Shown here one piece after another: positions 37,653-64,000 of a DNA stretch of 64,000 nucleotides (the stretch's first letter is position 1; every line of letters begins with the position of its first letter). Both the position numbers and the translations under genes were made by a program. The DNA comes from Welwitschia mirabilis (lineage: Eukaryota): positions 10,083,351-10,147,350 of the forward strand of contig JBOZIK010000001.1 in NCBI GenBank assembly GCA_051453625.1, in the 5' to 3' direction. The notes beneath the pieces are model-generated. The model was given only the letters and a program-made list of their open reading frames with translations. It had not been told where the DNA came from and made no database searches.

Positions 37653-37676
37653 ATATATATATATGTGTGTGTGTGG

Positions 37677-37717
<41 letters not shown>

Positions 37718-37831
37718 TGTGTGTGTGTGTGNNNNNNNNNNNNNNNNNNNNNNNNNNNNNNNNNNNNNNNNNNNNNNNNNNNNNNNNNNNNNNNNNNNNN
37801 NNNNNNNNNNNNNNNNNNNNNNNNNNNNNNN

Positions 37832-37896
<65 letters not shown>

Positions 37897-37922
37897 CGTG
37901 TGTGTGTGTGCGCGCGTGCGCG
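37653..37922. repeat. Compound (AT)n(GT)n(GC)n microsatellite spanning an N gap
   Basis: Directly visible alternating purine-pyrimidine tract. Confidence 0.95.
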
Positions 37923-38655
37923 CATAATAATTCATCCTATAAGAAAAATCCTATTCTATTTAAACCTATGCATTACCTTTTTATGATTTTCCTTATAGCC
38001 CTTAAAATCCTTTACACCTATTTTCTTTTTTCTATTAGCACTATTTTAATGAATTCTCCTTTCTCATTAGAGGAAGTAAGAATAAGAATCCTTAGTATTT
38101 ACTAAGGTGGAGGTGATGGTGAATTTTTTCTCTCTTCTTCTTCTTCTTCCTCCTCCTCCTCCTATTGATCTCTTGATGAACCAATTTGTCTTGTTGGTAC
38201 TCATTCTAGATGGCCATCCTCTTAACTCTAGTTATTTGCCTACCTATAGGGGTGGAGGGGGAAGAGAGAGAGAGAAAGGAGGCGGGGGGTAGAAAGAGAA
38301 AGAGAGATAAAGAGAGAGGTATATATGAAACATAATAAGTCATCCTATAAGAAAACTCCTATGCTATTTAAACCTATGCATTACCTTTTTATGATTTCCC
38401 TTATAGCCCTAAAAACCCTTTACACATATTTTCTTTTTTCTATTACTACTATTTTCATGAATTCTCTTTTCTCATTAGAGGAAGTAGGAATAAGAATCCT
38501 TAGTATTTAATAAGGTAAAGGTGATGGTGATTTTTTTCTATCTTCTTCTTCTTCTTCCTCCTTCTCCTCCTATTGATCTCTTAATGAACCAATTTGTCTT
38601 GTTGGTACTCATTCTAGATGGTCATCCTCTTAACTCTAGTTATTTTCCTATCTAT
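37923..38655. repeat. Diverged direct duplication of ~325 bp (37923-38247 and 38331-38655) separated by a G/A-rich spacer
   Basis: Both copies run cataataa.tcatcctataagaaaa... to ...cttaactctagttattt.ccta.ctat with scattered substitutions. Confidence 0.9.
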
Positions 38656-39151
38656 GATGTGATTAATTACTTTTTCATAATATTCCTCTACATGGGAAGG
38701 TTAATGATCATTTATGTAATGAAGTAAGTTACTTATAAGGATGAAAAAAGAGATTTTTTGAGGTTTTTTTTCCTTCTTTAAAAATATGAAAGGGGAATTT
38801 ACATATATTGAATATCTTATCATTTTAAATGAGAGCAATGAGATCATGAAAAGGAGAGTAACCTTTTATAATATGATAGGATGGATAAACAAAGATAATT
38901 CATCCTTAAATAAATACTCATATGGAACTGCTTCCTCCCTATTAAGTGAGTCTCAAACATTGAGCTTCCCATAAAGTAAAGCTATATCTTTTTCTAAAAT
39001 GGATGGGTTATTAGAATTAGGAAGATTTAAAACTTTAGATATTAAAGAGGAAGTAATGTAAATGTTGATATCTCTAACCACAATGGATAGAATTTTAAAA
39101 TACTTCTCTTTATCATTTAATAGTTTTAAAGCTATTTATTCTTATAGAAAG

Positions 39152-40076
39152 TGTTGTACCTTCTAATTTTATATTGATGAAAAATCCCATTATGAGAAAA
39201 GTCTAATAAGGAATATCTTGCATTAAAGAAAATAAGGAATTCAATAAGTAGTTAGCTTGGTATCACTAGGTGATTAACTAGATGCTATAAAAGGATAAAA
39301 AACTATAAAGATAAGTGATAGAGACTTGTAGTTTTAACTTACCAAAGTACAATAGGTAAGTAACTAAAGAACAATTAGTCATAAACTAGCCTATTATGAA
39401 AATGAAATCTTCTTATGCTAGGTCAATTAACCATTAATAATGGCCAACAGCTTAAGGGTGATTAATAGGGCCCTAATAAAGAGTCAACTGGTAATGAATC
39501 GGTTGATAAAAATGAATAAATTCAAGTAACTATTGGAGATAAATTGTGATAACATTTCTAGTTGTTGTAAGTCTCGATGACCAGCATAGATTATTGAAAC
39601 AATCAAAGACTATGTAATAATTATATGCATGAGTCACAAGCATGATTTGTATTTAATTTAATCATTGTTACACATCTAAATGCTTTTGATCATCTTATAT
39701 TTTATGAATAAAAGGAATAACTCATATTTTTATGCTTGCTTATACTTTCCTTTTATCATCATCTCTCCATTTGAGATCATCATTATGATGGATTTGAAGG
39801 TTAAGTATTATTACAAAATTTGTTTTTAATTAGTTGAGGGTTTCTAAGAAGTTTCATTAGACTGTTGTGATCACACACTTATCAATAAGAAAACAACCTT
39901 GTTTTTATTACTCCTTATGCTTTTTACTTTGGTATTACAATCCTATATATATTGTTCTTAATTTACTTTACAAAATTTATTAAATTTAATTTTGTGCTTA
40001 ATGCAATTAATTTTAAAATCAAAATTCCATTATCTATCATAATCATCCTTTCCATCTAGGATAGTTAATTCTAACA
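39152..40076 (+). mobile_element. Probable solo LTR (Copia, SIRE/Maximus-like termini)
   Basis: Starts TGTTGTACC..ttttatattgatga and ends aatcatcctttccatctagg...ctaaCA. AAAG lies on both flanks (4 nt match only) and there is no PBS. Confidence 0.5.
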
Positions 40077-41799
40077 AAAGGAACATATTAATGTAGAACT
40101 CTCTCACTTTTTTAAAAAAGGATGTCGTCTTACTTTATTTCAAGAGATACCCCAATTCTATTTTTTCTATTTTATTCACATAATAATAGCATATTATTGC
40201 ATAAATTTTTTAAATATTCCTTTCATAATAAAATATCTAATTCAACACAACATCTTAATTTTTGCAAATAGAATTTTAAGTAGCCTCATCCTCTTTCTTT
40301 TGTCTTCTTCATATAGACAATAGCATATCATTGCATAAATTCTCTGAATATTCCCTTCACAAAAAAAAATCTTTAAATTAATAAATATCTTGATTCTTGG
40401 AACTAGAATTTTAGAATAAACATATCATAATGCTAGTGGTTCTAATAGTGACATTAGTCAAATTAGGCAAATAAGGCTCTATAAGGTTTTGTGTAATTTA
40501 GCATGAAAAGTATTTAATTCTAAAATAGATGACTTTAATAAAGAGTGTACGGACTAGATTCTAGCTTTATACAAAAAAAGAATTAAATCTTAAACCTTGA
40601 TCAAATTATAAGAATGAGTAGTCAAGATTGTGATAACATGAATCAAGTCTAAATTTTTAATTTATGTTTATTAGAGAGTTAATTTTAATAATAATTAATA
40701 TTATATTGGAAATTAGGATTTTAATAATCGTTCTTTAAATTTAACCCTTAAGTATTCCATTATCACATTAAATTCTATTATCCTATCATCACATATAATG
40801 ATTGCAAACTTCCTAGTTAACCTATTAAATAGGAGATAAATATGTTCTAAGGGCTTATCATGTAGACCCAATGTATTGGGTTTTATAATGTAGGATATTG
40901 CCATCGTCCAGATGACACAATGGATGCCATACTCAATAGTTACTTTTTGCATTCTTATCATTTTCTTAACATCATTGGCATAAAATTAAAACCTTATAAG
41001 TTTGCATAATCTTGCATCAATTACTATGATATATGAGAATGTTAAATAATTATGATTTCTTTTCATTAGCCTTCCAATTATATAGTTGTTGTAATGACAA
41101 TGTAAAAGTAACATACTGAGGAATTGAAATCACTCATATCACAAAAATTTACTTAAAATGAATGTATATATCATAAAAATTAAATTTTAAATACATCATA
41201 TAAATTAAGCATACAATCGTTTATCTCAAGGTAATACATAAAACTTAAGATCCATGTCTGGGGAAAGTGGTGATGAAGATGGTACGCACTCTTCTTCCAT
41301 GGGGAAGAAATAGCTCACATTCTCACAAAAATCTCTCATCATTATTACATTTTATGTATGAATCTCCTCTAGAATATCAACTATAATACTTTACACAATT
41401 TACTACACTCTCTGCTCAATGATGGTCATCCTCTCATCTAGTGCCCTCATCTACTTAGTCATCCTCTCTGTGAGCCTCTACTCCATACTTGCAAGAAGGT
41501 CTTTGGATCTACTAAACTATAATACCTCTTGCTATACCTACTCCCAGAGTAGCTCTATGAAGTGGAGGTGGCTCTTAATCTCCAAGGATATGAATACTTG
41601 TGTCTTAAAGGAACCTAGTTGATGTTGTTAAGAATGTTTATGTAGGTATTCCCTCAAGTGCTAGAATTCCATACCTATAAAAGATAGCTATCAATAAGCA
41701 CAAGTATTCAAGGTTCTATAGTGATCTTGCCTCTAGAGTCACTCTCAGTCTTCTTATCATGTCTAGACTTTCAAGGTCCAAGATTCTAAATAATTCTTC

Positions 41800-43424
41800 A
41801 TGTTATGGAGCCTCAAATTAGTTTAGTTATTGCATCTATTACTTCCTGATTTCCAGTGGTGTAATTTTATCATGAAAATTTTATGCTATAATTCTTCACA
41901 TTTTGTAACAATCATAATATTGTCCTTGTTAAAAATTCTTAGTGATTTAATTGTGATTGTTAGTGGTTAAATTACTATAACTACTATGCTTTATCTATTT
42001 AACTAGAAAATAGCTTTTATGTAGTTATTGCATGATGAGCATTATTGTTTATTATTGAGATATAAATGCACCCAGTGACCTGGCAAGGAATGAAATAAGG
42101 ATGGCTATCAAATCTTTACCAACATTTGCCACCTCAACCACCCTCCATTATGATGTTTTATCTTCATATTCTCATAACCCTTCGTATTCCACCAAACCTT
42201 AGTTATAAATAATACCCTCTTCCCCCTTTCCTCTCACTTTCATTTTTGGAGAAGCCTTCGCTATCCAACATTGAAGCTTAGATAAGCCTTCAAGCCTTTG
42301 AGCCTTGGAATCTATGGAAGTTTTTGAGTCTTTGTTTTTTTTTGGGTATGATTTTATTATTTTCATTTCCTTGCTTGAATGGTTCTCATGTTCTTTCATT
42401 CCATTCTTGTGTGATTCTCATTTTCTCTTTTATTCCTTGCATGATCCTTATCTTTTACATCTCAAAGAAGTCCTTATTTTGAATGATCTAAATATTTGTA
42501 AAATTCTTCAAAGGTTATTCTTACGTATTGATGAAGTTTGCATGATCTGTATAGACTACATATGCTCTCATGTTAGTGTTGTCTTATGTAGTTGTATCGC
42601 AACCCTTCCCATCTTGTCTAAGTCTTGTAATAAGTTGTTAACTTGACTTGTTTTTTTTATCGACCTTAACTAATGATTTTTAAATAAGGAAACTCAAACT
42701 AGCCAGGGTAACTAGTTGGTTGGACCTTAGGAAGAGATGCTCTCTAAAGGAAGTCACACGGTCATGGGACTAAACTTTAGGATCATTAGGGAAAATGTAA
42801 CTAATTACCATTTGTCCCTCCTGGATTGTGTGCAACTAGATTACCAAAATCGGTTATGGAGTAATAGTTAAGAAAGATAAATTTAAATGAATCTTTGATC
42901 TTTTCTAGTCTATTCTTGATATCCCTTTTTACTTAAGAATCCTTATCATTCCAAACATTATCATGAACCATATTGAAACTGTGAAGGTTACAGTTCTCAC
43001 ACCCTAATGTTTGTATTTAACAAGTGGTTGAGTGGAGCACACAAAAAGCTGATTTGTCTTACCAAAAAGGGCATTTGAGATGTTGATTATTCTAGCTTGT
43101 GCATGAGAAATTGTAAAAATGAAGTGATTTATTCATCCTTGTAACTTGTAATCTATTATATCTTGTGATTAACTTTTGAGATATGATGTCAATATGGTAC
43201 TTGTGCTATCCTAAAAATAAAGAAGTATTTATTTTCTCTTGTATTTAAACACTGTGTGAGTTATTTATCTTCTTTACCTTCAAAGGTTACTTAAGGATGG
43301 GTTTTTGCATGCATATAGATTCATTTAAGAATTGTTAGCCTAAATAATTAATAATAGCATTTGTGAAAGTTTAAGTTCATAGTTTTATGTTAAAAATCTA
43401 GGATGTTACATTTGGTATCAGAGC
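41800..43424 (+). mobile_element. Ty3/Gypsy LTR plus perfect tRNA-iMet PBS; internal coding region absent; related to the 47914-59043 family (5' boundary uncertain)
   Basis: ...ggatgttaCA (43410) is followed by tt and TGGTATCAGAGC (43413-43424). It shares blocks with the downstream LTRs (cacccagtg, cctgg.ttgtgtgcaact, ttatcatg..cc..att g..act). Confidence 0.75.
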
Positions 43425-44763
43425 CTAGGTTATGGTTAAATCGGATCTAGTGAGTATTGTGTAGTATTATTTAGAAATTTATAAATAAATGAGTTACAAG
43501 CTCAATAAACCATAGGGACAAAAGAGACTAGAGAACAACAAAAATGTGGTTTTCCTTTAAGGAATGAAGTCTGAAACCCCAAGAGTATAGGATGTTGATC
43601 TATATGAAAGATAAAATGACCACAAAACCCAATTATCTAAGGTTCATAGAACATGTCATATTTTTCAACAAAATTACACTTCACTATTGAGAGAAAGTCC
43701 TAAGCAAAGAAGAGAAAAACAGGAAGAATTCTAGCTAATCCTTTTAATTTTCCTTTCATTTATTAAAGATTATTTTAGACCAATATATTATACTTGGACA
43801 TCTTCTACCTTCTTTCTCATACTTTTTCACATGAGGGACTTTTTTACGCATTTACTACTGTAGAGGCTATGCAATTTTTCACTATATCATTGTTTTATAT
43901 TCATGTAGAAAGGTTCCCTTTTTATATTTAAAAAAAATGAAGGTTATTGTAACTATTATCTGTATTAGATTATTAATAAGTGATGATAAGGATAAACAAG
44001 TCAAAGTTAAAAATAAAAATAGATTATTAAAATAGCCAACAGGAAGTGAATCTAGAGTCGTTGTAGAAGGCGTTTCACATGAGTGGTTGAGACACTACCC
44101 ATAAGTGGGCGAGTTCAACAATATCAAAACATACAAAATAAACAAGTAAATGCGTAAAGTGGGAAATGGTTCCAAAAACGATATGGGCATTTACCTGAAT
44201 AATCGATGTCATTTGGAAATAGATAACTAAAGCATGATTTTTCCAAATTTATCAGAGGAATTTCGAATGCTGTTGAGAAAGGAAAGGTTGTCTCTCGTCC
44301 TTCTCTGTAACTTGCTTTTAAAGAGGACAATCATGACACTTTTCCAAGCGTTTTCCTTCGGTTAATTTCTAGAATTCTGAGACAAGCAGCTTATTCCTGC
44401 TTTCTTTCCTTTGCTTTCGGCTATCAATAGTATTGCATGCATCATTTCTAGGGTTTCGTCTTTGCTTTCCTCAGTCCTTTTTGTTGCATTGCTAGAGTAA
44501 CGGCCAATGCGGCAATCATTTCTTTTGATGTTGTAGCATCCATTCGACAATTTCTGATCTATGATCCTTCGCGTGTCTGAGTTACTTGATCACGCTTCCA
44601 TTTGCAAGCAATTTAGTTCAATTTTCTAGACTCGTAGGTGATTTTCTTTATTTACTCGATGGTTCTCAGTTTTGATAAATTTCTGAGAATCTTTGTACAT
44701 AAAAGTGCTTGAAAGTCTAGGTTACTTAGAGTAGATGCCAAATTCATCTCGTATCTTCTGCCA

Positions 44764-44948
44764 GTGGATAGTGATGTTAAGCAGAGCCAATAGGGAAGAC
44801 TCTTACACCTCGAAAGTGCAAGAGCGAAGCACTGATACAAGTGGTGTTATAATGCCCTATTCTGCGACACAAGATCGATTTTTTTTTCCCTCCCTTGTTC
44901 TGAGAACTCTCTGTTGTCCCAACTACTTGCGCTTGAGTTCTTAGTTGC
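44764..44948 (-). pseudogene. Captured ARM-repeat fragment (plant U-box/ARM family)
   Basis: KNRSCVAE*GIITPLVSVLRSCTFEV*ESSLLALLNITIH matches the PUB ARM consensus NRxxIAExGAIPxLVxLLxS.....QExAVTALLNLSI. Confidence 0.75.
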
Positions 44949-45355
44949 CTGCATTTCAAAAGGAAGATCATGAAGCCAATGATGCACATTGCTCAAAGGA
45001 AGTTCTTCCAAATTGCAGTATTAAGGCATAAAATACTGTAGCATATCTTCAGTCCACAGCCATTTTTCCTAACTGTTCCACCCTTGATTGAATATTATCA
45101 CTAAATATAGCTGAGAGGGCAAGCGTGATTGCCTGAAGCATTTTACTAAATGAAGATGACATTGTTGACTGATCTATATGCTCCAGTTTTGCAGGATCAT
45201 CTTTAACAGAAGATTCTCTAGTAAGCACTGTTATTATGTAGCACAGGAATATTATAGAAAGAATATCATGCTGAGCAAAGGCATGGAATGCATCTTCCAC
45301 AGACCAGTCACAACGTAGCCTTGTGATATTTTTTGGCACAACATCCCTTCACTTA

Positions 45356-45770
45356 AATGTTCTTCGTAATCTCTTCTACTTTCTTCTGGTATAACTCCAC
45401 CTGTTTAGACATTCTATAGAAGAGTTCCTCAATGACTTCAATCCCAGACTTTCCATATGCTTGACATTGCTTTCTATTAGCAATACCTACCGATGCTTGC
45501 ACTATTGTACAAGTTTCATTAGCCTGCATAGTCCTAAACTCAAACAAAGAACGCAATTTTTTAGCTTCCTTTCCAAGATAAAATGTTGACTCCCTTCTTC
45601 CATATGGCCTAATGGCATAAAGTTCAACAGCAGGCAAGAATGCTCTTGGCACTACCTCAAAGAGCAAAAATCCCTCTTTGGCTAACTCCAAAAATAACAT
45701 GATCTTGGAATGATTGCATAGGGTCTCTAATTTTCTGGACATTATAAAACACAGATAGCCCTTGGGGAAA
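45356..45770 (-). pseudogene. KCBP: Captured fragment of a divergent kinesin-like calmodulin-binding protein (KCBP/ZWICHEL): FERM C-lobe plus start of coiled coil
   Basis: FPQGLSVFYNVQKIRDPMQSFQDHVIFGVSQRGI, then a +1 T-run frameshift, then LLFEVVPRAFLPAVELYAIRPYGRRESTFYLGKEAKKLRSLFEFRTMQANETCTIVQ...IEVIEELFYRMSKQVELYQKKVEEI. This aligns with recalled KCBP LPYGNSVFFSVRKIDDPIGLLPGRIILGINKRGVHFFRPVPKEYLHSAELRDIMQFGSSNTAVFFKMRVAGVLHIFQFETKQGEEICVALQ...EVYEKRLQDLSKAYEESQKKIEKL. Confidence 0.8.
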
Positions 45771-46427
45771 ATATAGAAAATAGTTTCAATGCAAGTCAAG
45801 AAGTTGGCATGGCAGTGCAGAAGCAATCAAAAAATAATGCAGGAGATGTCACTGCTTTTGCCAAACACTAAACCTAGTAATGGGATCAAACAGGGCACAT
45901 ACATGCATAGCCCTGGAATAGCAGAGGGAATTGCTATCAGCAGAAGCAAACTGCATAATTTACCAAACCCAAATACCAAGCTTTTCGAAATAATATTCCA
46001 CTTGAGAGAACCCATAAAACTAGTCATGGTTGGACTGATAATTTTATGATTACTGCAAGAGCCATAACAAAGATCCTTTGGCCCTTTCTTATCTTGCAAT
46101 CGAATAATTACTTGAACGATCTTGAAATCTGCGATGCAAGGATTATCTACTTGAATCGAGCCTGCTATTTATCTTGCTTGAAGTATTGTCTTCTAATAGT
46201 AATAATAGCAAAGGTATATTATGAAACTAGGTGGTTACATCAACTCAGTACCAATCACTCAGACGTCAGGTCTCTAATGGTTATGACATTACTCCCTCCA
46301 CTAAAGTAGGCAATGAGATCCTGCATTATGTCAACCCCAACTCATTAATGGAGATGATTTTTATGAAGTTGTTTTAATGCGCTTTACTTTGCCCAATACA
46401 ACATTTAGGGACAGGCACTAACTGAAG

Positions 46428-46850
46428 TTGTGCATGGAGGGTAAGAAGGTGAATAGGTTGTTAACTGTGTGTCAACTAATTCAAACCCAAGGGGTGACTA
46501 AAGAAGATGGAAACAATTTACATTCGGTTAAAAATGCATCTCTTACTCGACGAAAAACATTGGATGATACTTACTATATCACATATAAAAGATGTTTAGA
46601 TGATGTCAAGCATCCTAGAGATAAATTATTGCATCATTCTGCAAGGTCTAATTCAATATTTGCTTGTGAATTTAGCAATTGGATCTTTGAAGAACAATCA
46701 CCCTTTTTGGAAAGTGTTCTCAAAGGAGAGTTTGCCCTGCGATCATAACAAGTCCAATGCAAATGGTAATATTTTGTTGGTGCTCTGAATTCTAGAAATC
46801 TTGAACCAATTGGCCCCTTGGTTGTATGCTCAAAAATGACACATACTATA
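46428..46850 (+). pseudogene. Unidentified coding-derived fragment
   Basis: 106-aa open frame with protein-like composition (TLDDTYYITYKRCLDDVKHPRDKLLHHSARSNSIFACEFSNWIFEEQSPFLESVLKGEFALRS) that continues through TAA stops (*QVQCKW*YFVGALNSRNLEP). Family not recognised. Confidence 0.45.
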
Positions 46851-47149
46851 GCAAATCGGATGGTTGGTATACATATGATTCCTCACACAGTGTTTTTGTC
46901 AAACAAACTCACTGTGAAATCACTATAACAAATGCAAGATCCTTTGACATTATATAGTCATGAAATGCCTTCATGATGTTATTAAGTAGTTGAGCATGCC
47001 CAATTTTATTTTCTTTTAAGTCAAGGAAATAGTTCTTCTATTCAGTTTCATGTGGTTTATTGTAAGCAATTCATGCATTCCTGCAGTAATAACATTCTAA
47101 AAATTTAAATGTTTTAACTAATAGAGGAGCCCACATTGGTAACACCTGA

Positions 47150-47751
47150 GAGGTTGAGATAGGTCTTAGTCCAACTTTGGAGTTCTATACACTTCCGAGT
47201 TATAAATTTCAAAAACAGGTACTCGGCTTGTGGAGATCAAATCCTTTGTTTGATAACACTTCTTCAAAAACGAAGGATAAACAATGTTCAAGTTAGAGGA
47301 TACAACCATTGCTGCAAATGAAATGAGTGAACAAGCAAACAAATCTAGAAGCTACGTGCTAGCTCCTCAAGGACTATTTCTTCGACCATTACCACCTAGC
47401 ACTGGATCTTCATTAGGAAGCGCTTTTTTAAGAGTATTATAACTATTTTGACTCCTTGGACATGTTAGCGCAAAAGCTCTCAAGGAGGCATGGTGTCCTA
47501 GTTTTGGAACTTATACCAGCATCTTATAAACTCATACTTGGACATGAACTTGGTTTGTTTGATATCAAGGCTTTTAACCCTAAATTAGAAGCCATCTTGG
47601 AAAATTTGTATCCCCTATTCAACAAAGGCATATCTAGGAAACATCACATAAGTCATCTAATTTGCACATTTGTAATGCAAAGCTTGCTGAACTTTGCCCT
47701 GACTTTACACTTCCTGATTACCCTGATTATATTCTTAAGCCTATAGGGAAA
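47150..47751 (+). pseudogene. UPL3: Captured HECT-domain fragment of a UPL3/UPL4-type E3 ubiquitin ligase
   Basis: EVEIGLSPTLEFYTLPSYKFQKQVLGLWRS...YVLAPQGLFLRPLPP...LF*LLGHVSAKALK...YKLILGHELGLFDIKAFNPKL...AELCPDFTLPDYPDYILKP. Recalled UPL3 reads EVGTGLGPTLEFYTLLSHDLQK..LGMWRS...APLGLFPRPWP...FRLLGRVMAKALQDG...FYKLILGQELDLHD...EDLCLDFTLPGYPEYILRP. Confidence 0.9.
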
Positions 47752-47756
47752 ATCTT

Positions 47757-47913
47757 ATGGTTAATAGCAAACACAACAATCACCCCATTGTTTTCTTCAA
47801 AGTCATTCATCTCTATGACTAACTGGTTCAACATTTGTTCTCTTTCATTGTTTCCCCTCCCAATTTCAGTCCCTTTGTCTTCTAACTAAATCAAGCTCTC
47901 TAATGGAAATAAT
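47757..47913 (-). pseudogene. ftsH: Captured chloroplast type-B FtsH (FtsH2/VAR2-like) AAA fragment, 3' part (Walker B onward)
   Basis: IISIRELDLVRRQR[fs]GTEIGRGNNEREQMLNQLVIEMNDFEENNGVIVVFAINH versus [53 protein letters not shown]. Confidence 0.9.
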
Positions 47914-50900
47914 TGTCACATCTAGAGTTCTGCTAAGGTTAGAAAACCTCCTTAGTTACTTTGATAAATAATTAGATATTAGAAAAACTCGAGTTTCTAG
48001 CTGATAAAAAATAATAGAATCTATAATAAAAGTAATAGTAGAACTAAAGTATTTGCATGATAATATCTTAGAATTTATTAAAAGAATAACTTGGAGTTAT
48101 TATTTTGTTAACTAGATTAAAGTTTCAGTTCATCATGAAGTTTACTGCTGTTTATGCATGATTTTCTATTTGATCTAGTTTAACACCAGATTTCTTGATG
48201 TATTTTAGATTTCTGAAACTACAGCTTGACACTAATTATCTTAACTTTATCTTATTCATGCAATGGAAATTATGTAATTTTAAGTATTAGCTCTTGTTAT
48301 TTGCCTCATGCAGTAAAAATGATTTATTAGATATTGTTATATTATTATTCACACCCAATGGCCAGACTTGGAAAGGAAGGATTAAAGGAACATGAACTAT
48401 ACCTAAACCTTATAATCAGCATTACTGTTAGTTCTCTATTATAGATACTTGAATTCCCCTAGCTATGAGGGTCATATCTTGTAACTTGATCATGTGGAAC
48501 TTGGTTACAAACTAGGCATACATTGGATTTCATTAAGAACAGGTGTCGTCCTTACCCTTCTTTGTAAATACTTTTATGAATTATTCTTGAATCTCCTTCC
48601 TTTGTAGTTGTATCTTGTAAATTCAAATGAATGCAATATTCTTATGATTGTCATGTGTGCGCTAATGTTTTCATAAAAGCTTATAGTCTTTTAATGATAT
48701 CTTGTGAGAGTCCTCTATGAATTTGTAGAGTCAACATTTCATGTGAACCCTAAGCTGTCTGCTTGTTAAATGTTTGTATTGAGTCCTATTGACTAGCCTT
48801 TGTAACCCATACCCATGATCATCTTGTTTGACCATTAACCTTGATGTTAAACAATGGAAACTAACTCCGACCAATGTAACTATTTGTTTGAACCTCAGAG
48901 ACTGATACTCTCTGTTGTGAGTCCTAAGTAACTAGACCGAACCTCCAGAATGAAACGAAAAGATGAATATACAATTATGATAATATTACTCATTCCTGGT
49001 TGTGTGCAACTGGCTTACTTATATATAATGAGACGACACTAAAGAAGATAATTCTAAGGGATAAGCGGTCATGGTTATGTCCTCTACCCTGTTCTTGGGA
49101 ACCTTCCCATACTATTCCTTATCATGGGCCGCATTGGGAACTATAATAGAATTCAGTTTCCATACCACCTATGCTTGTGTAGGAACCAATGCAAGTAAGG
49201 ATGCATGAAAGAGCTAGTGGTTGCAGAGACAACTGGGTATCATTCATATGTTTGCTTCTGTGATTATGTGGATGTTATGTGATCAATTATTGCTTTAGTT
49301 GTTTTGTCATGTTTTAGAAATTATTTCTAGTGAAAGACTCTATGTAAAGATCTCTGTTAGCAAGTTGCTTGATATAATGTAGACCTTTGTCTTACCTTAG
49401 TTATTTTAATAATTTAGCACAAGTGAACGTTCTATTATTTTCTTGGAAATTGCAAAATATTATCTTCCTCTCTCTCTCTTGCAACAGCCATTTTTTTTGA
49501 AATTATATATATGTACTTATTAAAGTTATCATGTACCTTTATTTGGACATAACTAGTTATTTTAAAATGCTGGCAGATTATAAGCATACCTTAACTATTG
49601 TCATTTATATGTTATTGTCAAAATGATCTATAGGATAAATAGTTAAGTTAACTAGTTGATAAGTAACAGGTCTAAGGGTTGGATCCTCTTAGTCATTAAT
49701 TCTTAAATCATTTTTTTTTCACATATGAATTGATGATATACATGTGTCAGTCAATGAATTTTTTGTTTGGCACCTTCGTCTATTAAGGATTTGGCACACC
49801 CCTTTCCTGTGCCTCAATAGTCAGCGTGTCGCTCCTCTCTCATGCATTGCAAGGTGCCTTCTCCCCTCCACTGATGAGCTTTTCTCTACCACCTGCATTC
49901 CCCACAGTGCCTGTCTCCTTATTACTCATGTGTTGCCTTGTCTGTGTCTTTGCTATGCCTAATGCTTGTGAGCCATACCCTTGTCCATTTTCTGTCTGCT
50001 TATGTTCTTCATCACCATCCCTCTTACGTGTTTTCACACCCTTCCTTCTTCTACTGTGGTGCAACCGTCTCTGTGCCAATCTCCACCTTATGCCTTCGCT
50101 CTGCTACCCTCACTCTTGCCCTGTTCTGACCCAGTGTCTTCCACCATTGTCGTGACCTTGCACTCCTCTCCCTCTGCTTCACAGTGCTTCTCCTCACTGT
50201 AGGCCTCTCCCTCCATTGGTACACCCCTTTTGCACCACTCATGTACTATCTCTCATGCAATCCATCACTACCACCCTACACCTTCCGCACTCCGTCCTTC
50301 ATCCACTCAGGCCTATCCATCTCTACTTCACAGACCATTCAGTAAGTCATTGAATAATGGTTGTCCACTATATATATATATAAACATTTGTAACTAGAAA
50401 TATTTTCATCTTTAAGATCACTTTCTCTATAAGTATAGAAAAGTATATGTTCATAGATGATTTATTAGGGTTAAAGGTTGTAGAAAAATCATAATGGTAG
50501 TGTTAAAAGATAACTTGTTCGAAATAAGAATTATGGGTTGGTATGGATCAATCTATATAGCAATATGTATAAGTGGATAAGTAGATGTCGAATATGCTAA
50601 GAGATAAAGGACGATCTTCAAATTTAGTACTACATATGCATTAATAGTTTCTATGTAACCTTAGAAAGATGTAAGAATGGATTTCATTCTTAGATTACGT
50701 TGCTTAAAAAGAAGTAATATCCCACACTAGTTATGATAAATAGACTGGCAAGATAGCATACTTTATTTCTTTTAGTAAGACTAGAGATTCTTATGTGGTA
50801 AATCATTTGTCTAAATTTATTCTTCCATCATGGTTTATATTACATTGACTACCTAATTCCATTACATTTTATCTAATAACCTCTTGTTGACTTATTAAAC

Positions 50901-50921
50901 ATTTAAATCCCAACCGTTATA
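47914..50921 (+). repeat. 5' LTR
   Basis: Runs from tgtcacatctagagttctgc to caaccgttata; colinear with 55940-59043. Confidence 0.92.
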
Positions 50922-50924
50922 ATT

Positions 50925-50936
50925 TGGTATTGGAGC
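50925..50936 (+). promoter_or_regulatory. PBS (tRNA-iMet type, decayed)
   Basis: tggtattggagc, 3 nt after the LTR end; consensus TGGTATCAGAGC. Confidence 0.8.
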
Positions 50937-51019
50937 ACTTAATTGAGAAGTGGATTTATATATGAATTTTATCCTTATATTTATCTTGTTTAGCCTTCTA
51001 ATTCTGGTAGGATTAATTG

Positions 51020-54000
51020 ATGGACCCTAGGAGAGTTGTACTATCTCCCTCTAATGTGAGATCCTTCGTAACCACTATGAATCATCTAGTGGAAGGGCTC
51101 CAGAATAGGAGAGATGGTAGAAATGATGAGGAAGCAACATGAATTTTGATGGTGCACTTTTAGCAAACAAATCCCCCAGTCTTTAAAGGGTCAGATAATA
51201 TAGCTAAAGCTAAAACCTGGCTAATCTCTATTAATAAGGAGTTAGAGCTATTTAACTTCATGTCAGAATAGAGGGCCACTTTAGCTGTGCATTAGTTAAG
51301 AAAAAATATAGCTTTATGATGGAATAAGGAGAAGGAAAAGCCAAATTTTCCTGACTAGCTATCTTAGGAATCTTTAAAGAACAATTCCAAACTAGGTATA
51401 TATCTGAATATTACAAAGATGTCAAGGAGGAAGAATTTTACAACCTTAGACAAGGGTCGATATCAGTATCTCTTTACAAGAATAATTTTATGCAGCTATT
51501 GAGGTATGTAATAGAGATAGCCAACAGTGAAACAGTTAGGATATGAAGACTAGTGACTAGTTTACATCCTGTTATTTAGAGACATATTAGATTGTTTTAG
51601 TTGAGAACATTTGCAAAGGCCTTGGAAAAGACAAGGCTTTCTAAGGAATCCTGGACTAGTAGTAGAAGCTTTTGAGACATAGGGGAAAACTCCCAAGAAC
51701 AGAGGGGAACTTAACTTAGGAAAAGGTCCTTTTTCAGGAGTACAGGAATAGGTAAAGCTAGAGATCAGTATGAAGCTGCTAGGGTGAATAAAATGGAGGC
51801 CAAGAAACCCCAAGGAAGAGGAAAGGCACTGGTGGTACCATCATCTTCTGCTACATGAACAAAGTCATAGGACACTATGACTACTACATGTTATAATTGC
51901 AAAGAACGTCATTTGATTAGGAACTGCCCCAAGAATAGAAGAGAGCAACAGGGTACAATAGATGTCAAGAAACTATATGCATGCATATCTAGGAAAGATG
52001 TTCAACCATTAGTAATCTTGGAAACTATAGGTATTATATTTAATGTTCTAATAAAATTTTATTAAACCCTAGAGCAACAAATTCCTTTATATCTCTTGAG
52101 ATGTCTCAAAGTTTGTTTATTATAGTGCATATCAAAAACAAAGTGGTAGTGGAACTTCCAGATGGTAGTACAATTAGGGTCTTGATAAAACCTCCATTAT
52201 TGATGTTATAATTAGATCTCATATTTTCTAGGCATAATTTTTAATTTTGGAACTGGGTCATTTTGATGTCATCTTAGACATGAATTAGCTTCAAGAAAAT
52301 AAAGCTAAATAGATTATTTTTCTAGATAGGTCATAGTGATAGGAATAAATGGTGAGAAATTCTAGTTACCCATCACCTCTAGCCCTCCTGTAGGAAGATT
52401 GATAAGCAAGAAGCAGATGATGAGATAAGTACACAGACGAGGAACTTTTGGGATAGTTAAGTTTTTATCTTCTCTTCAATCTTAGTCAAAAGTTTTAAAT
52501 ATACTAATAGTAAAGGAATATGTTGATCTATTTCTTGAAGATTTATCAGGTTGCCCTCCAAATGGAAATGGGGAATTCCAGATAACTCTTAATCCTAATT
52601 CAAAAGCAATCTCAAAGGCAATCTACAGGATGTCTCCTATTAAGCTAGCTAAGTTGAAGACTTAGATGACTAAACTTTTGAATAAAGAATTAATTATGCC
52701 AAGCATATCATCGTGGGGTGCACAGTACTATTTGTTAAAAAAAGGATGGAAGTTTGAGGCTGTGTGTGGACTACAGGATGTTGAATAAGGTCGTAATAAG
52801 AAATAGCTATTCCTTGACTTGGATAGAGGATTTATTTAATCAATCAAAGTAAGCTAGAATCTTCTCCTAGGTTAATCTTCAGTCTGGATATCACCAACTT
52901 AGGATCAAGGAAGAATATGTCTTTAAAAAGCCTTCTAAACTAGGTATGAACATTATGAGTTTCGAGTAGTTCTGTTTAGCCTTACTAATACACCTGTAGC
53001 ATTCATGGTAGTGATGAATGATATTTTTAGATCCTACTTGGATGACTTTATTGTGGTTTCCATTGATGATGTTTTAGTGTATTCTTCAAATAAAGAGGTA
53101 CATGAGAAGCATTTGAGGATAGTGTTGAATCACTTTTATGCAAATCCTAATAAGTGTGAGTTNNNNNNNNNNNNNNNNNNNNNNNNNNNNNNNNNNNNNN
53201 NNNNNNNNNNNNNNNNNNNNNNNNNNNNNNNNNNNNNNNNNNNNNNNNNNNNNNNNNNNNNNNNNNNNNNNNNNNNNNNNNNNNNNNNNNNNNNNNNNNN
53301 NNNNNNNNNNNNNNNNNNNNNNNNNNNNNNNNNNNNNNNNNNNNNNNNNNNNNNNNNNNNNNNNNNNNNNNNNNNNNNNNNNNNNNNNNNNNNNNNNNNN
53401 NNNNNNNNNNNNNNNNNNNNNNNNNNNNNNNNNNNNNNNNNNNNNNNNNNNNNNNNNNNNNNNNNNNNNNNNNNNNNNNNNNNNNNNNNNNNNNNNNNNN
53501 NNNNNNNNNNNNNNNNNNNNNNNNNNNNNNNNNNNNNNNNNNNNNNNNNNNNNNNNNNNNNNNNNNNNNNNNNNNNNNNNNNNNNNNNNNNNNNNNNNNN
53601 NNNNNNNNNNNNNNNNNNNNNNNNNNNNNNNNNNNNNNNNNNNNNNNNNNNNNNNNNNNNNNNNNNNNNNNNNNNNNNNNNNNNNNNNNNNNNNNNNNNN
53701 NNNNNNNNNNNNNNNNNNNNNNNNNNNNNNNNNNNNNNNNNNNNNNNNNNNNNNNNNNNNNNNNNNNNNNNNNNNNNNACTATAGAAGATTTATAAAGAA
53801 TCTCTTTAAGGTAGCTTCCTTCTTAACTTCACTGCTATGGAAGAATAATTAATTTGAATGGACTGAATAATGTGATGAAGACTTTCAAACATTAAAGATA
53901 ATCGTTGTCTCAGCATCAGTTTTGAGGATGCCAAAAAATAGGGAAGCCCTACACAGTGTACATAGATGTCGCATGTGATGGCTTAAGAGCGATTTGAATG

Positions 54001-55900
54001 CAAGATGGTAAAGTGATAGCTTATGCATCTAGGCAGTTAAAGAATCATAAAAAGAATTATCTTGTTCATGACTTAGAGCTAGCAATGATTATTCATGTGT
54101 TGAAAATTTGGAGGCATTATCTCTATGGTGAACAGATAGAAATTTGGATGGATTAAAAGAGTTTAGAGTCTATCCATACGCAACCAAATCTAAATCTTAG
54201 GCAAAGGTGTTAGGTATAATTCCTACAAGATTATGAACTTATGATAAATTATCATGTAGGAAAAGCAAATGTAATGGCTAATTCCTTAAGCAAAAGAAGG
54301 CATACTCTCTATAATTTGATAGCAGATAATAAACTACATAACATGATTCTAGAAGCATAATAGAATTTCCCTCTATGCAAAAGAGTTAGAGAAGTTAGGT
54401 TGAAATTATTTACCATTTCAAAAGGTGAATTGATATGATATCTAGAAAAGAATGTGGTCCCTAATGTGACAAGAATTAAAAATCTAATTTTTGAAGAATT
54501 TCATGCAAATAAATATGCTATTCATCTAGGAACTAGTAATATGTACATGGATATTAAGTATTTTTATTGTTAGCCAATAATGAAATTGGAGATAGTTGAT
54601 TATGTAACTAAGTGTATGACTTGTTAGTTAGTCATGGCTAAGAATAGACACCTAGCAGGACTTCTTTATCCTCATAAGGTTCTAGAGTGGAAATGGAAAA
54701 ACCATAGGCATGGACTTTATTATAGGTTTGCCTAAGACCAAAGAAGGATATGATTCTATTTTTGTCATTGTGAATCTTTTAATGAATAGTGCACATTTCT
54801 ATCTAGTGAAGACAACAAATATGACTGAGTGAATTACAAGGAAGTATGTCAAAAATATTACTAAATTGCATGGAATTCCTAAGGTAATAATTTCAGATAT
54901 AGATAGTAAATTCACATCCAGATTTTAGACCATCTTTGATAAGGAATTAAATATGGAGCTAAATTTGAGTACATCTTTCCATCCTCAAACCGATGGGTAG
55001 ACTGAAAGAATGAATCAAATATTAGAGGAATTGTTAAGAATGATTACTCTAAACTTCGAAGAGTCATGGATAGATCATTTGCCATTAGTGGAGTTTACTT
55101 ATTATAATAGTTAACAAGAATCTATTGGATATGCACCATTTGAAGCCCTATATGGAAGGGTATATAGGACCCCATCTTCTCAGTTTGATGCAGTAGACAA
55201 AAGGCTATTGCAAGTTCCATCCACTCAACATTTAGAAGAAAGAATTGGACAAATCAAAAAAAAAACTTCAAGTAGTGAAAAATAGGTACGTGAGGTATGT
55301 GAATCAATATAGAATGCAACTATAATTTCAAGAAGGCAATCANNNNNNNNNNNNNNNNNNNNNNNNNNNNNNNNNNNNNNNNNNNNNNNNNNNNNNNNNN
55401 NNNNNNNNNNNNNNNNNNNNNNNNNNNNNNNNNNNNNNNNNNTACGTGAAGTATGTGAAGCAATATAGAAGGCAACTATAATTTCAAGAAGGCAATCATG
55501 TATTCCTCAAATGTTCCCCTTCAAAGGAGTGTTTAGGTTTGATAAGAAATAAAAATTAGCTCTAAGATTTATTGGACCTTATCAGGTAATTAGAAGAGTT
55601 GGGCCTATGACTTATGGGTTAGTCTTACCACCTCATTTATCCATGTTACATAATGTCTTCCATGTATTATTGTTGCAGAAATGTATCTCGGATGAGATGA
55701 AGATCATTCTAGATTAAGATATTACCATCCTTCTTGATTGTTCTATAGAATCTTAACCAGTGAAATTACTCGACCAAAAGGAGATGACACTTTAGGGAAA
55801 AATAGATAAGTTACATAAAGTCAAGTGATCAGACCAGATAGAAGATGAAGCGATATGGGAGATGAAGGATGATATCTTATAGTGGAAACCTAAGTTACTA
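51020..55900 (+). pseudogene. gag-pol of the chromovirus element (many stops/frameshifts, two N gaps)
   Basis: NPPVFKGS (gag); CYNCKERHLIRNCPK (Zn knuckle, ~51890); LNPRATNSFIS (protease, ~52062); [24 protein letters not shown] and VSIDDVLVYS (RT); [10 protein letters not shown] and HDLELA (RH); HPQTDG*TERMNQ and RFIGPY (INT); chromodomain-like LLDQKEMTL...EAIWE (~55765-55860). Confidence 0.92.
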
Positions 55901-55925
55901 GCATGTTTTCAAAAAGAAACCTCTT

Positions 55926-55937
55926 AAGGGGAAGAGA
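55926..55937 (+). promoter_or_regulatory. Polypurine tract
   Basis: aaggggaagaga immediately before the 3' LTR. Confidence 0.85.
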
Positions 55938-55939
55938 TT

Positions 55940-58900
55940 TATCATGTTCAGAGTTTTGCTAAGTTTAGAAAACCTTCTTAGTTACTTTGATAAATAATTA
56001 TATATTAGAAATTACTAATAATAAATAACTCTAGTTTCTAGTTGATAAAAAAATAATAGAATCTGTAATAAAAGTAATAGTAGAACTAAAGTATTTACAT
56101 GATAATATCTTAGAATTTATCGAAAGAATAACTTGGAGTTATTATTTTATTAGATAGATTAAAGTTTTAGTTCATTATGGAGTTTGCTACTAATTATACA
56201 TGATTTTCTATTTGATACAGTTGAACACCAGATTTCTTGATGTATTTTAGATTTTTGAAACTGTAGCTTGACATTAATTCTCTTAACTTTATCTTATTCA
56301 TACAATAGAAATTGTATGTGATTTTAAGTATTAGCTCCTATTATTTGTCTCATGTAGTTAAAATGATTTATTAGATATTGTTATATTATTATTCACACCC
56401 AGTGGCCAGACTTGGAAAGAAAGGATTAAAGAAGCCTTAACTACTTGTAGAAATCTAAACCTTACCATTAGCCTTACTATTAATTCTCTATTATAAATGC
56501 CTAAGTACCTCTAGGTATTAGAGTTATATGTTGTGACTTGATCGTGTGGAGCTTGGTTATAAACTAGGAGTATATTGGATTTTGTTAAGAACATGTGTCA
56601 TCCTTACCCCTCTTTATAAATACTTGTATGAATTGTTCTTGAATTTCCTTCTTTTGTAATTGTATCTCATAAATTTAAATGAATGCAATATTCTTATGAT
56701 TGTCATCTGTGTGCTAATTTTTTGTAAAACCTTATAGTATTTTAATGATATCTTGTGAGAGTCTTCTATGAGTTTATAGAGTTAACGTTTCGTGTAAACC
56801 CTAAGCTATCTTATTGTTAAGTGTTTGTACTTAGTCTTGTTGTCTAGCCTTTGTAACCCATGCCTGTGATCATCTTGTTTGACCATTGACGTTGTTGTTA
56901 AACTATGAAAACTAATTCCATCCAAGGCAACCAGTTATCTAAACCTCAGAGAGTGGTACCCTTTGTTGTGAGTCCTAAGGTAACTGGACCGAACCTTTAG
57001 GATGAAAGAGAAAGATGCATACACAATTATGATAATCTTACCCCCTCCTGGTTGTGTGCAATTGGCTTACTTGTATATGGTGAGACGACACTAAAGAAGA
57101 TAATTCTAAGGGATGAGTGGTCATGTTCATGTCATTTACCCTATTCTTGGGAGCCTTCCCTAACCTATTACTTATCATGGGCTACACTAGAAACTATAAT
57201 GGAATTTAGTTTTCATACCATCTATGCTTATGTAGAGACCAATGAAAGTGAGAATGCATGAAAGAGCTAGTGGTTGTAGAGACACTTGGGTGTCATTCAT
57301 ATGTTTGCTTCTGTGATTATGTGGATGTTATGTGGTCAATTATTGCTTTATTTATTTTATCATGCTTTAGTAATTATTTCTAGCAGAAAACTCTCTATGA
57401 AGATCTGGGTTAGCAAGTTGCTTGATATAATGTAGACCTTTGTCATACCTTAGTTATGTTAAGCACAAGTGAATGTTCTATTATTTTCTTGGAAATTGCA
57501 AAATGTGTATTTTATCTTCCTCTCTCTCTCTTGCAAGAGCTATTATTTTCTTGAAATTATATATATGTACTTCTTAAAGTTATCATGTATCTTTGTTTGG
57601 ACATAACTAGTTATTTTCAATTGTTGTCAGATTATAAGCATACCTTAACTACTGTCATTTATATGTTATTGTCAAAATGATCTATAGAATAAACAGTTAA
57701 CTAGTTGATAAGTAATAGGTCTAAAGGTTGAATCCCCTTAGTCATTAATTCTTGAATCATTTTTTTTCTTTTTTTTAAATACGAACAGATGATAAACGTG
57801 TGTTAGTAAATGAATTTTTTTTTATTGGGGACCTTGGTTTATTAAGGGTTTGGCACCCCCCTTTCCTGCGCCCCAATGGTCAACACGCTCCTTCTCCCTC
57901 ATGCGTTGCAGGGTGCCTTTATCCCTTCACTGAAGCTTTTCTTTTATCGCTTTCACTCTCCACAGTGCCTGTCCCTGGTCATTGCATGTTACCTTGCCTG
58001 CGCCTTTGCTGTGCCTGGCACCTATGAGTCGTACCCTTGTCCATTTGCTGCCTGCTTGCGTCCTTCACTACTGTCCCTCTTACGCGTATTCGTGCCCTTC
58101 CTTGCTCTGCCGTGTTGCAACCCTCCCCACGCTGATCTCCATCCCACGCCTTTGCTTCACCGCCCGTGCTCATGCCCTGCTCCGTCCTAGCGTCTTCTGC
58201 CACTCTCATGACCCTGCGCTCTTCTCCCTCTGCCCCATCGCACTTCTCCTCGCCGTAGGCCTCTTCCCCCACTGGCACATACTTTTCCCACCACTTGCAC
58301 ACTACCTCTCATGCAATCCATCGTTGCCACCCTGCACCTTCCGCGCTTCACCCTCTGTCCACTCGGGCCTACCCATCTCTGCCTCACAGGCCACCCAGTA
58401 AGCTATTGAATAACTGTCGTCAAATACTAAGGCATACTTTAAGAAGAATGGTTAAGCGCATGCCTAATTTCTCTCCTCGTTGATATATATATATATTGAA
58501 ATACTGAAAAGAAGTATTTAAAGGTTTGTAACTAAAAATATTTTCATTTTGAGATTGCTTTCTCTATAAGAACTGAAAAAGTATATGTTCCTAAATGATT
58601 TATTAGGGTTAAAGATCGTAGAAAATTCATAATGAAAGTGTTAAAAGATAACTTGTTCTAAATAAGACTTATGAGTTGGACAAACTAGCAATATGTATAA
58701 GTGGATAAATAAATGTGGAATATGATAAAGGAGGATCTTCAAATTTAGTACTATATATGCATTAACAACTCCTATGTAGCCTTAGAAAGATTGAAGAATG
58801 GATTTCATTCTTGGATTATGTTGCTTAAAAAGAAGTAATTACCACATACTAGTTATGATAAATAGACTAGCAAAATATCATACTTTATTTCTTTTAGTGA

Positions 58901-59043
58901 GACTAGTGATTCGTATGCAGTAAATCATTTGTCTAAATTTATTTTTCCATCATGGTTTATATTACATTAACGACCTAATACCATTACATTTTATCTAATA
59001 ATCTCTTGTTGACTTGTTGAACATTTAAAACTCAACCCTTGCA
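55940..59043 (+). repeat. 3' LTR
   Basis: Runs from tatcatgttcagagttttgc to caacccttgCA; homologous to 47914-50921. Confidence 0.92.
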
Positions 59044-59193
59044 AAAATGTAGGATGCATTTTCCTTTGTTCTCTAAATAGATCTTAAACTCTACCTCTTT
59101 AGAAATGGACTTTGTCAGTAACACTCTATTGAAAATTCTAGTCCTCACATTTGTGAAACTCTCTATCCTATTTAGAAACTCCACAATTTATTC
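59044..59193 (-). pseudogene. ftsH: FtsH AAA fragment, 5' part (internally deleted)
   Basis: IVEFLNRIESFTNVRTRIFNRVLLTKSISKEV..RV*DLFR..KENASYI versus [24 protein letters not shown][..]AKAIAGEAGV[..]RVRDLFKKAKENAPCI. Confidence 0.8.
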
Positions 59194-63300: not shown

Positions 63301-64000
63301 GAGGAAGCGACAAGCTTCAAGTTCTTCTCAGTATAGGCTTGTACAATAGGAGATTGAGTCTAAGAGCTTAAATGCTCCATCGCTTATCTTTTATTGTCTT
63401 TATTAAAAGATTCAATTTAATAGATCTTCATAGCCACCATTATTACCTTAGCCCTCTTCACCATTACATGCACCTTCTCCACCTCTAGTTCATCCACCAT
63501 TACCTCCATCTTTGCATATAGAGCCCATTTAAATTGAACTAATCCCATCTATTTAGCTTCTGTCCATCTTCACAAAGATCACCATCACTAGCTTCTTAGG
63601 ACTTTTATCACTTCTTAAACATATCAATGCATGAGGAGATAGGACTTTTAAGACCCTAGTAAGACATCATACTACCCCTCTAAGAAGAGGCATACACCAC
63701 CACCTACTTCATCGTAATCTTATACATAGCCCAACTTCACCATCCATGATAGTGAGAACGGTGATGAAGAAGCCAAGGTAAGCAAGATAGGAGTGATTTA
63801 GGTCTCACTAATTAGAGCCTTTCTATTGATATCCAAAAATGGATAGAAGTATAGGAAAAATTAGTAGCAGATCACTTGAATATTTTCGCTTCCAGGATTG
63901 AGGACATGGGATTGGAGCTCTTGATTATGATATCTTGAATTGGATTTAAGAGTGTCATTATTTGTATCATTGATCCCTCCTTGACATTTTGGCTTACATT
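60380..64000 (+). mobile_element. Heavily deleted Copia, possibly Sirevirus-like, remnant with env-like ORF debris
   Basis: Zn-knuckle-like IIWYYCHCKGHYLYRCP (~60998-61048), an RNase-H-like SINLCKN (~61290), repeated a(g/a)acatct/agatgtct motifs at 61525-61845, then ORF debris with *KEFYANIY (~62238). Confidence 0.45.

Follow-up and report, generated by a model that had tools for sequence, protein, structure and literature searches.

KCBP/ZWICHEL (KIN-14E in Arabidopsis naming, KIN-14I in rice naming) is the plant MyTH4-FERM kinesin-14, and the C-lobe of its FERM domain is among the most conserved plant sequences. Flowering-plant kinesins are described as having many introns (PMC1434745). Plant retrocopies and chimeric retrogenes are products of RNA-based duplication, and chimeric retroposition is reported to be frequent in plants (PMC6881317). 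Host-gene fragments are also captured by transposons (maize Bs1, Pack-MULE, Pack-CACTA, and Helitrons), and Pack-type capture has been reviewed together with other gene-capture mechanisms (PMC13317346). A further system is formed by the additional open reading frames (ORFs) of plant LTR retrotransposons, some of them antisense and given as of unknown origin, in a source that also treats Bs1-type transduction (PMC7264820). Going by these accounts, gene-fragment capture and retroposition of the kind considered here are well known in plants, and the donor lineage is the sole unusual element of the locus that we describe.

That locus is a KCBP-like piece on the minus strand of a 64,000-nt stretch of DNA, the whole of which is referred to here as the window. 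The piece is colinear with the FERM C-lobe and linker of KCBP and has in common with it a weak IRS-type PTB signal at the same place. In contrast to KCBP, it represents only about 11% of the protein, with no MyTH4, FERM N or M lobe, coiled coil, motor, or calmodulin-binding end in the 64 kb, and it is intron-free, frameshifted, and only ∼31% identical, whereas seed-plant KCBPs are mostly 76 to 85% identical. With plant retrocopies it shares the precise loss of both introns as well as a position adjoining retrotransposon sequence; unlike them, it is an internal three-exon stretch rather than a 3′-anchored cDNA, shows by eye neither poly(A) nor a target-site duplication, and has moved much further away from its parent family than retrocopies typically do. 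The tight packing of unrelated pieces and the hints of more than one copy recall transposon-captured host-gene fragments, but no carrier could be delimited here, and the patchwork is the insertion target of the neighboring Ty3/gypsy element, not its cargo. Finally, an open frame kept despite divergence is a trait shared with the additional ORFs of plant LTR retrotransposons. We consider it probable that the piece is a silent, dead relic: a copy of three consecutive spliced exons for the FERM C-lobe and linker, taken from the transcript of a KCBP-type kinesin-14, that lies in a patchwork of host-gene pieces and diverged mostly with its frame kept. As it stands, it is ordinary plant-genome debris and says nothing new about KCBP function; its sole odd feature is enormous divergence with a reading frame that is hardly broken.

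The window is A+T-rich draft sequence with nine N runs and a G+C content of 0.22 to 0.38 per 2 kb, and its retrotransposon content and best protein matches point to a plant. Scans of the window for tRNAs and Rfam families gave no matches. The features to which the text refers are as follows, with positions counted along the window.

44435..44487, no strand assigned: piece of an expressed, G+C-rich gene from elsewhere in the genome (53 nt, nearly identical).
45356..45664, minus strand: KCBP-like part 2, 103 codons, equivalent to canonical exons VHFF...ETKQ and GEE...linker (predicted remainder of the FERM C-lobe plus post-FERM linker); TAA follows.
45664..45672, minus strand: single frameshift, +1 nt in a T-run, 3 to 7 nt past the equivalent of the INKRG/VHFF junction (45672/45671).
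45666..45785, minus strand: KCBP-like part 1, 40 codons read in the second of the two minus frames, corresponding to the canonical exon that ends in ...INKRG (predicted first strands of the FERM C-lobe); profile E 3e-5, 19 bits, profile positions 495-529.
47150..47746, plus strand: fragment of a TRIP12/Ufd4(UPL)-type HECT E3 ligase in three frames; PDB phmmer with 47150-47293 gives TRIP12 at E 3.2e-4 and Ufd4 at E 0.014.
47730..47913, minus strand: FtsH-like AAA fragment, frameshifted, abutting the 5′ LTR; the extension over 47885-47913 was made by eye in translation.
47914..59041, plus strand: nested Ty3/gypsy LTR retrotransposon, which splits the patchwork (LTRs at about 47914-50925 and 55940-59041, enclosing gag, protease, and RT).

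On the minus strand, positions 45353-45826 form a stop-to-stop frame of 157 codons (P0001), the longest N-free ORF across the 64-kb window. An ORF of 157 codons within the surrounding 3.9-kb region occurred in 1.3% of 2,000 first-order Markov resamplings, and ORFs of 95 codons or more number six there, with 0.88 expected (P 0.001). The homologous reading does not stay within the 157-codon frame but switches once, in the T-run, between two minus-strand frames that lie one base apart; both frames span the same profile positions, and the first 35 to 40 residues are better matched by the second frame (45660-45785). When corrected for the frameshift, with an X at the break, the reading comprises 40 + 103 = 143 codons (45785-45666 and 45664-45356) with no stops, and it is bounded by stops at 45786-45788 just upstream (first frame) and by the TAA at 45353-45355. 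The distance from the junction equivalent to the Pro codon is 22 nt in the window and 21 nt in the spliced form of L016, a genomic metagenome KCBP locus. The T-run in which the frameshift lies has a counterpart T-run in the canonical exon, and the frameshift looks like an ordinary homopolymer slip. The initial annotation had claimed about 135 codons with one frameshift and no internal stop, which is confirmed at 143 codons once the break is bridged by X, and had placed them at 45356-45770, which is correct to within about 15 to 45 bases at the upstream end.

A phmmer search with P0001 against 1.84 billion cluster representatives returned one match at an E value of ≤0.001, namely, P0002 (E 7.2e-4, 24% identity, query residues 16-157), a Victoria cruziana gene model from a seed-plant KCBP cluster with MyTH4, IRS/FERM_C, and kinesin motor domains. 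In a pairwise BLASTP comparison, the two sequences aligned at 3e-12 over 144 columns with two one-residue gaps, and the alignment extended into the post-FERM linker; conversely, tblastn of the window with P0002 retrieved the piece at 1.3e-9. In addition, a profile was built from 25 seed-plant KCBPs and run on all 2,652 six-frame window ORFs of at least 15 amino acids. It matched 45356-45826 at E 3.8e-8 (positions 491-634 of 1283) and the 42-residue ORF at 45660-45785 at E 3e-5 (495-529), with all remaining window ORFs at E values of about 6 or worse. The predicted order, colinear with profile positions 491-634, is thus a PH/PTB-like FERM C-lobe and then the KCBP linker. Pfam assigned the piece an IRS-type PTB domain at an E value of 0.027, under the cut-off, at the place where P0002 scores 1.8e-7. 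Homology therefore identifies the predicted reading as a derivative of KCBP (KIN-14E/I, ZWICHEL), as the initial annotation had proposed, with a match that reaches the KCBP-specific linker past the FERM domain; its alternative of another MyTH4-FERM gene found no support, as only the KCBP cluster was matched. Since the match to the post-FERM linker is seen in land-plant rows and not in L009, L011, or L014, the alignment also points to a putative donor of the land-plant KCBP type. A PDB sequence search with P0001 gave no usable match (best E 0.71), and word-seeded searches with it in a 5.8-billion-cluster collection found no match at an E value of ≤0.1 in either the "near" or the "longer" length class. 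No donor or intact relative was found in these large protein collections, in which the phmmer search matched only canonical KCBP.

The piece is the only fragment of KCBP in the window, and no other KCBP domain accompanies it. Neither tblastn with P0002 nor the 25-KCBP profile on six-frame ORFs matched a motor, a MyTH4 domain, or a coiled coil anywhere in the 64 kb; no Pfam Kinesin match to a kinesin-14 motor domain was obtained among 129 ORFs in 38000-53000; and no match to MyTH4 or to the FERM N and M lobes was found upstream of the C-lobe. Directly upstream of the 157-codon frame, and separated from it by one stop, sits an in-frame ORF of 113 codons (45830-46168), which has no profile match and no PDB match and, with an Atlas recognition value of 1164, is not recognized as a protein.

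The initial annotation had also called the piece highly divergent from a normally very conserved segment, and this holds at about 31% identity. The corrected reading is identical to the Arabidopsis-like KCBP cDNA contig L001 at 42 of 129 aligned residues and to the grass-like cDNA contig L003 at 41 of 134, with 26 to 30% identity to alga-like contigs. In the matching region, identity to P0002 is 59 to 100%, and mostly 76 to 85%, among the 120 seed-plant KCBPs listed, which include conifer, Ginkgo, and Amborella sequences. Across a 120-residue segment, identity to P0002 is 62 to 98% for the 80 metagenome loci retained, most of which are marine and alga-like and many of which have uninterrupted genes, and alga-like KCBP contigs retain 63 to 81% identity to this water-lily protein. 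At the nucleotide level, identity between the piece and KCBP cDNAs is about 0.55 for first, 0.58 for second, and 0.38 for third codon positions, compared with 0.82 to 0.87, 0.92, and 0.48 between true KCBPs, and one 12-codon block has 0% amino acid identity at 35% nucleotide identity. A rough estimate of omega for the piece is 0.5 to 1, with wide error. In a maximum-likelihood tree of 29 rows, from which a motif filter had removed eight loci (L013, L018, L028, L033, L037, L041, L043, and L046), the window row sits on a terminal branch of 10 changes per column, at a position without support. The tree with land-plant KCBPs that had been suggested for tracing the donor thus gives no supported placement of the window row and names no donor.

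To set the open frame against expectation, neutral substitution was simulated from the L001 and L003 cDNA stretches with base composition taken from the locality and the transition/transversion rate ratio (kappa) set to 2 or 4. At about 31% amino acid identity, the simulated sequences carried a mean of ∼6 stops in 143 codons, and the probability of no stop was 0.001 to 0.003, a value to be discounted for ascertainment, since an open frame is what singled the segment out. For local neutral calibration, we used the two LTRs of the neighboring retrotransposon, which differ at 446 of 2,972 aligned sites (p-distance 0.150), 337 of them by transitions, and by 23 indel events, or 0.052 per substitution, 83% of which are not multiples of 3. 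By arithmetic from this LTR rate, the roughly 245 substitutions on the fragment's branch would have brought ∼10 frameshifts, against the single one seen (Poisson probability about 3e-4, subject to the same discount). The absence of stops where ∼6 were expected and the one frameshift in place of ∼10 argue that the frame was protected through most of the divergence. Change looked about equal at the three codon positions, which suggests that constraint kept the frame open and hardly conserved residues; equal change at the three positions is also what neutral decay predicts. We infer that most of the divergence arose with the frame kept open and under weak amino acid constraint. The proposal in the initial annotation that the divergence arose under coding constraint thus finds support for frame keeping and not for residue conservation.

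Under our preferred reading, the introns would have been removed through an RNA intermediate, when the piece was inserted here or at an earlier stage, if the donor was itself a retrocopy. The amino acid divergence of roughly 69% would have accumulated mostly while the sequence was part of a translated frame, with selection keeping the frame open and barely conserving residues. The carrier may have been a fast-evolving, KCBP-derived retrocopy or an ORF on a mobile element, and the patchwork of unrelated host-gene pieces would be of a type that gene-fragment capture by transposons or by repair leaves behind. Constraint on this copy would have been lost only recently, by the +1 slip in the T-run, and the window copy would now be functionless. 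Identity of about 31% with no stop and one frameshift thus points to time spent in a translated, barely constrained ORF.

Expression and copy number were approached with reads. Three RNA-seq runs under the same species label (about 11 to 12.5 million reads each, or roughly a quarter of a run) were placed on 43500-47900 at a likeness of at least 95%, and depth over 45356-45826 was 0 to 0.29 in all three. The copy is not a live gene: it is frameshifted, draws essentially no RNA reads, and is accompanied by no other KCBP domains. DNA contigs of a near-identical relative covered 25 of the 30 bins with three differences, none of them in the piece, and without indels; in the frameshift bin, mean depth was about 5, again with no indel. 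In the same contigs, bin 45411-45557 reached a summed depth of 54, against 0 to 21 in the other bins, and two contigs diverge from the window at 45551 into similar sequence (23 of 30 bases alike by hand count). This one depth bin and these two contig ends hint at further copies in the close relative, and such copies are also silent, because the shared stretch 45411-45557 drew no RNA reads.

A bolder version of our reading, which we regard as possible and yet unlikely, is that the piece is one broken member of an undescribed, multicopy lineage of KCBP-derived FERM C-lobe frames. Such a lineage would have begun as a spliced three-exon retrocopy. Its frame would then have stayed translatable under almost free residue change, whether the lineage was carried as an accessory ORF by a mobile element or formed a host gene family that diversified rapidly, and intact, expressed members would exist elsewhere in the genome. 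If intact relatives do exist, a cytoskeletal cargo-binding lobe would have been recruited into a fast-evolving ORF, possibly on a mobile element, and the family would provide a clean case for how captured exons persist.

Plain neutral decay would dispense with a translated phase altogether. Here, an old processed insertion of ordinary KCBP mRNA would have drifted to about 31% identity, with the open frame and the single frameshift owed to luck. The codon-position identities given above are consistent with the same amount of change at each position; the copy carries a frameshift and is not transcribed; the neighboring FtsH-like and HECT-like pieces are visibly broken; and a segment picked because it is open carries an ascertainment bias. 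Against these points stand the low probability of a stop-free frame at the observed identity and the deficit of frameshifts relative to the local indel rate. Decay from ordinary KCBP would also need about 0.6 changes per site, ∼7 times the per-lineage LTR distance (0.167/2), and the neighboring fragments are by eye far less diverged from their families, so that simple codecay is a misfit. We therefore judge this explanation improbable and retain the dead relic with a mostly frame-kept history as our working account.

The case for an RNA step is built on exon structure. L016 (to which L017 is identical) contains many KCBP exons, is nearly identical to angiosperm KCBP in this region, and carries two introns in phase 0, about 105 and 81 nt long and with GT..AG borders, exactly at INKRG/VHFF and ETKQ/GEE, the two places given for introns in the initial annotation; the parental intron structure is thus that of one contig and not of the window's own genome. 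The window is seamless at the equivalents of both junctions (45672/45671 and 45524/45523), and on this alignment both introns are absent from the KCBP-like piece. The absence of both L016 introns implies that the piece passed through spliced RNA or that its donor was intronless, as had been claimed. In addition, either end of the detectable match lies no more than about 10 codons from the outer borders of the three canonical exons. It ends in the linker, far short of the mRNA 3′ end; by eye, no A-tract over 6 bases lies just downstream of the piece as a poly(A) tract, and no target-site duplication of the piece itself was seen, nor were flanking direct repeats found.

The piece lies among others of unrelated origin. 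A 52-residue minus-strand ORF at 47730-47885 matched FtsH (1lv7) in a PDB phmmer search at E 4.4e-8 and 14 more FtsH entries at E values of ≤1.5e-4, with roughly 24 of 40 residues like those of Escherichia coli FtsH by hand count. Of the HECT fragment, the part at 47432-47743 had 26 of 30 ESM Atlas matches in HECT clusters (score 0.95), with no Pfam match for the HECT piece and no PDB match for this part. The 53-nt piece at 44435-44487 drew 46 to 73 RNA reads per run in all three runs, with two fixed differences, and beyond the piece on both sides all of these reads depart from the window sequence. Elsewhere, a PDB search with 45052-45348 gave no usable match (best E 1.5). Pfam searches of 129 ORFs of at least 40 residues in 38000-53000 placed only retrotransposon gag above the cut-off, with weak noise otherwise; 79 of 101 listed ORFs of 20 to 39 residues (the 22 left of 43759 being omitted) gave nothing at an E value of ≤0.05; and 65 of 66 listed ORFs in 59000-64000 (one containing Ns being omitted), together with two ORFs of the HECT piece, gave no meaningful match.

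Such packing leads to a further alternative, capture at the DNA level without an RNA step, in which a KCBP gene lacking both introns in this lineage would have been copied by a Pack-type, Helitron-type, or repair-mediated route. Three unrelated gene fragments tightly packed in both orientations recall DNA-transposon transduplication, Pack-type capture is among the processes described in a review (PMC13317346), and three genomic KCBP contigs with a G+C content of about 50% (L042, L045, and L054) have a single exon across the stretch. However, the only contig with angiosperm-like exons has both introns at exactly the annotated places, and the coincidence of the homologous stretch with canonical exon borders, to within about 10 codons at either end, speaks against this route. 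Moreover, terminal inverted repeats around the patchwork are missing from the window: no inverted pairs were found in 36000-64000 at a length of 60 nt or more, nor across the 64 kb at 80 nt or more, and blastn of 38000-47913 against 59042-64000 showed nothing above chance level, with a 21-nt direct match (E 0.003) as its best. With neither terminal inverted nor terminal direct repeats around the patchwork within the window, no carrier element is delimited, and its ends may be decayed or outlying. We give DNA-level capture little credence and continue to favor a spliced transcript as the source.

The least credible alternative, a live, fast-evolving small gene or exon for a FERM C-lobe-like protein with tissue-limited expression, in which the frameshift is an assembly error or translation starts at a downstream in-frame ATG, could draw on a length of 157 codons that no other N-free ORF in the window reaches (regional P 0.013), on the in-frame 113-codon ORF directly upstream with one stop between, and on a frame that stayed open through heavy divergence, but it is very unlikely given essentially no reads in three of three RNA runs (depth 0 at 45411-45557 as well), independent DNA data from the close relative with no indel in the covered bins, a post-frameshift frame that encodes only part of the PH/PTB-like lobe, a Pfam signal limited to the subthreshold IRS-type PTB match, no such protein in the large collections searched, and an upstream ORF that is not recognized as a protein and lacks a PDB match.

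The Ty3/gypsy element is the only complete element nearby. Its repeat families are spaced by about 8,050 nt, Retrotrans_gag is matched at 51355-51543 (E 2.5e-7), and an RT-like ORF at 52939, the element ends, a 4-of-5 target-site duplication, and a PBS-like site were recognized by eye. From its LTR p-distance (0.150) and commonly used plant substitution rates, we take the element to be several million years old. The KCBP-like piece lies about 2.1 kb outside its LTR, and two named classes of cargo were considered and found no support: cargo or an additional ORF of an LTR retrotransposon, as the piece is not between the LTRs of the only nearby pair (47914-59041), and Pack-MULE or Pack-CACTA cargo, as the pieces are without terminal inverted repeats and a target-site duplication around them within the window. 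A PDB search of the far flank (59035-59187) returned no match for a continuation of the FtsH-like piece. By eye, the element seems to have inserted into that piece, which would continue on the far side at 59042-59330.

Whether the two introns that interrupt this part of KCBP in the plant genomic contig L016 are a fixed feature of the gene can be judged from three further genomic KCBP genes (L042, L045 and L054), which lie on metagenome contigs with a G+C content of ~50% and carry introns elsewhere in the gene. In all three, the stretch split by two introns in L016 is a single exon, so not every KCBP gene carries this pair of introns. Contigs from the close relative's DNA suggest that part of the KCBP-like piece exists in several genomic copies, since the summed depth of bin 45411-45557 is 54, versus 0 to 21 in other bins, and two contigs branch off from the window sequence at 45551.

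The KCBP-like piece lies in a 1.7-kb region (45049-46748) with four ORFs of 99 to 157 codons and a fifth ORF, distributed over both strands; only the KCBP-like ORF has a recognizable relative. The HECT-type fragment, of which the plus-strand ORFs might represent a more upstream portion, apparently lacks introns across ~600 nt and ends ~10 nt from an FtsH-like piece on the opposite strand.

Features in and beside the host-gene patchwork (window coordinates)
45049-45348, minus strand, ORF
45353-45826, minus strand, KCBP-like ORF
45827-46168, minus strand, ORF
45959-46309, plus strand, ORF
46422-46748, plus strand, fifth ORF
47150-47746, plus strand, TRIP12/Ufd4(UPL)-type HECT E3 ligase fragment in three frames
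47730-47913, minus strand, frameshifted FtsH-like AAA fragment (PDB match, E 4.4e-8)
47914-59041, plus strand, Ty3/gypsy LTR retrotransposon
47914-50925 and 55940-59041, its LTRs (~3 kb each)
51355, gag; 52044, protease-like sequence; 52939, RT-like ORF

By eye, the FtsH-like fragment possibly resumes beyond the retrotransposon at 59042-59330 (minus strand), with an internal deletion, which would mean that the element inserted into the FtsH-like fragment; a search of this far flank against PDB gave no match. Visual inspection also identified a target-site duplication (ATAAT / AAAAT) around the element and a PBS-like site downstream of its 5' LTR. Of 2972 sites compared between the two LTRs, 446 differ, with transitions accounting for 76% of the differences, and a 616-N gap follows the RT-like ORF.

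On the other side of the KCBP-like piece, at 44435-44520, the minus strand contains AAACCCTAG. In each of the three RNA-seq runs, 46 to 73 reads match a 53-nt stretch within this interval, with two fixed differences between reads and window. Where the reads extend to one side of this stretch, our own comparison shows that likeness to the window persists, and most mismatches there pair a transcript C with a window T, a pattern that would be consistent with a captured piece decaying by deamination.

Elsewhere in the window, a second set of direct repeats (4665-6573 and 11973-13316; 78 to 85% identical, spacing ~6700 to 7300) probably represents the two LTRs of a different, older retrotransposon. 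A dinucleotide microsatellite within 37590-38630, translating as CV or HT runs, flanks a 100-N gap and precedes two tandem 300-nt units that share 93% identity (spacing 408).
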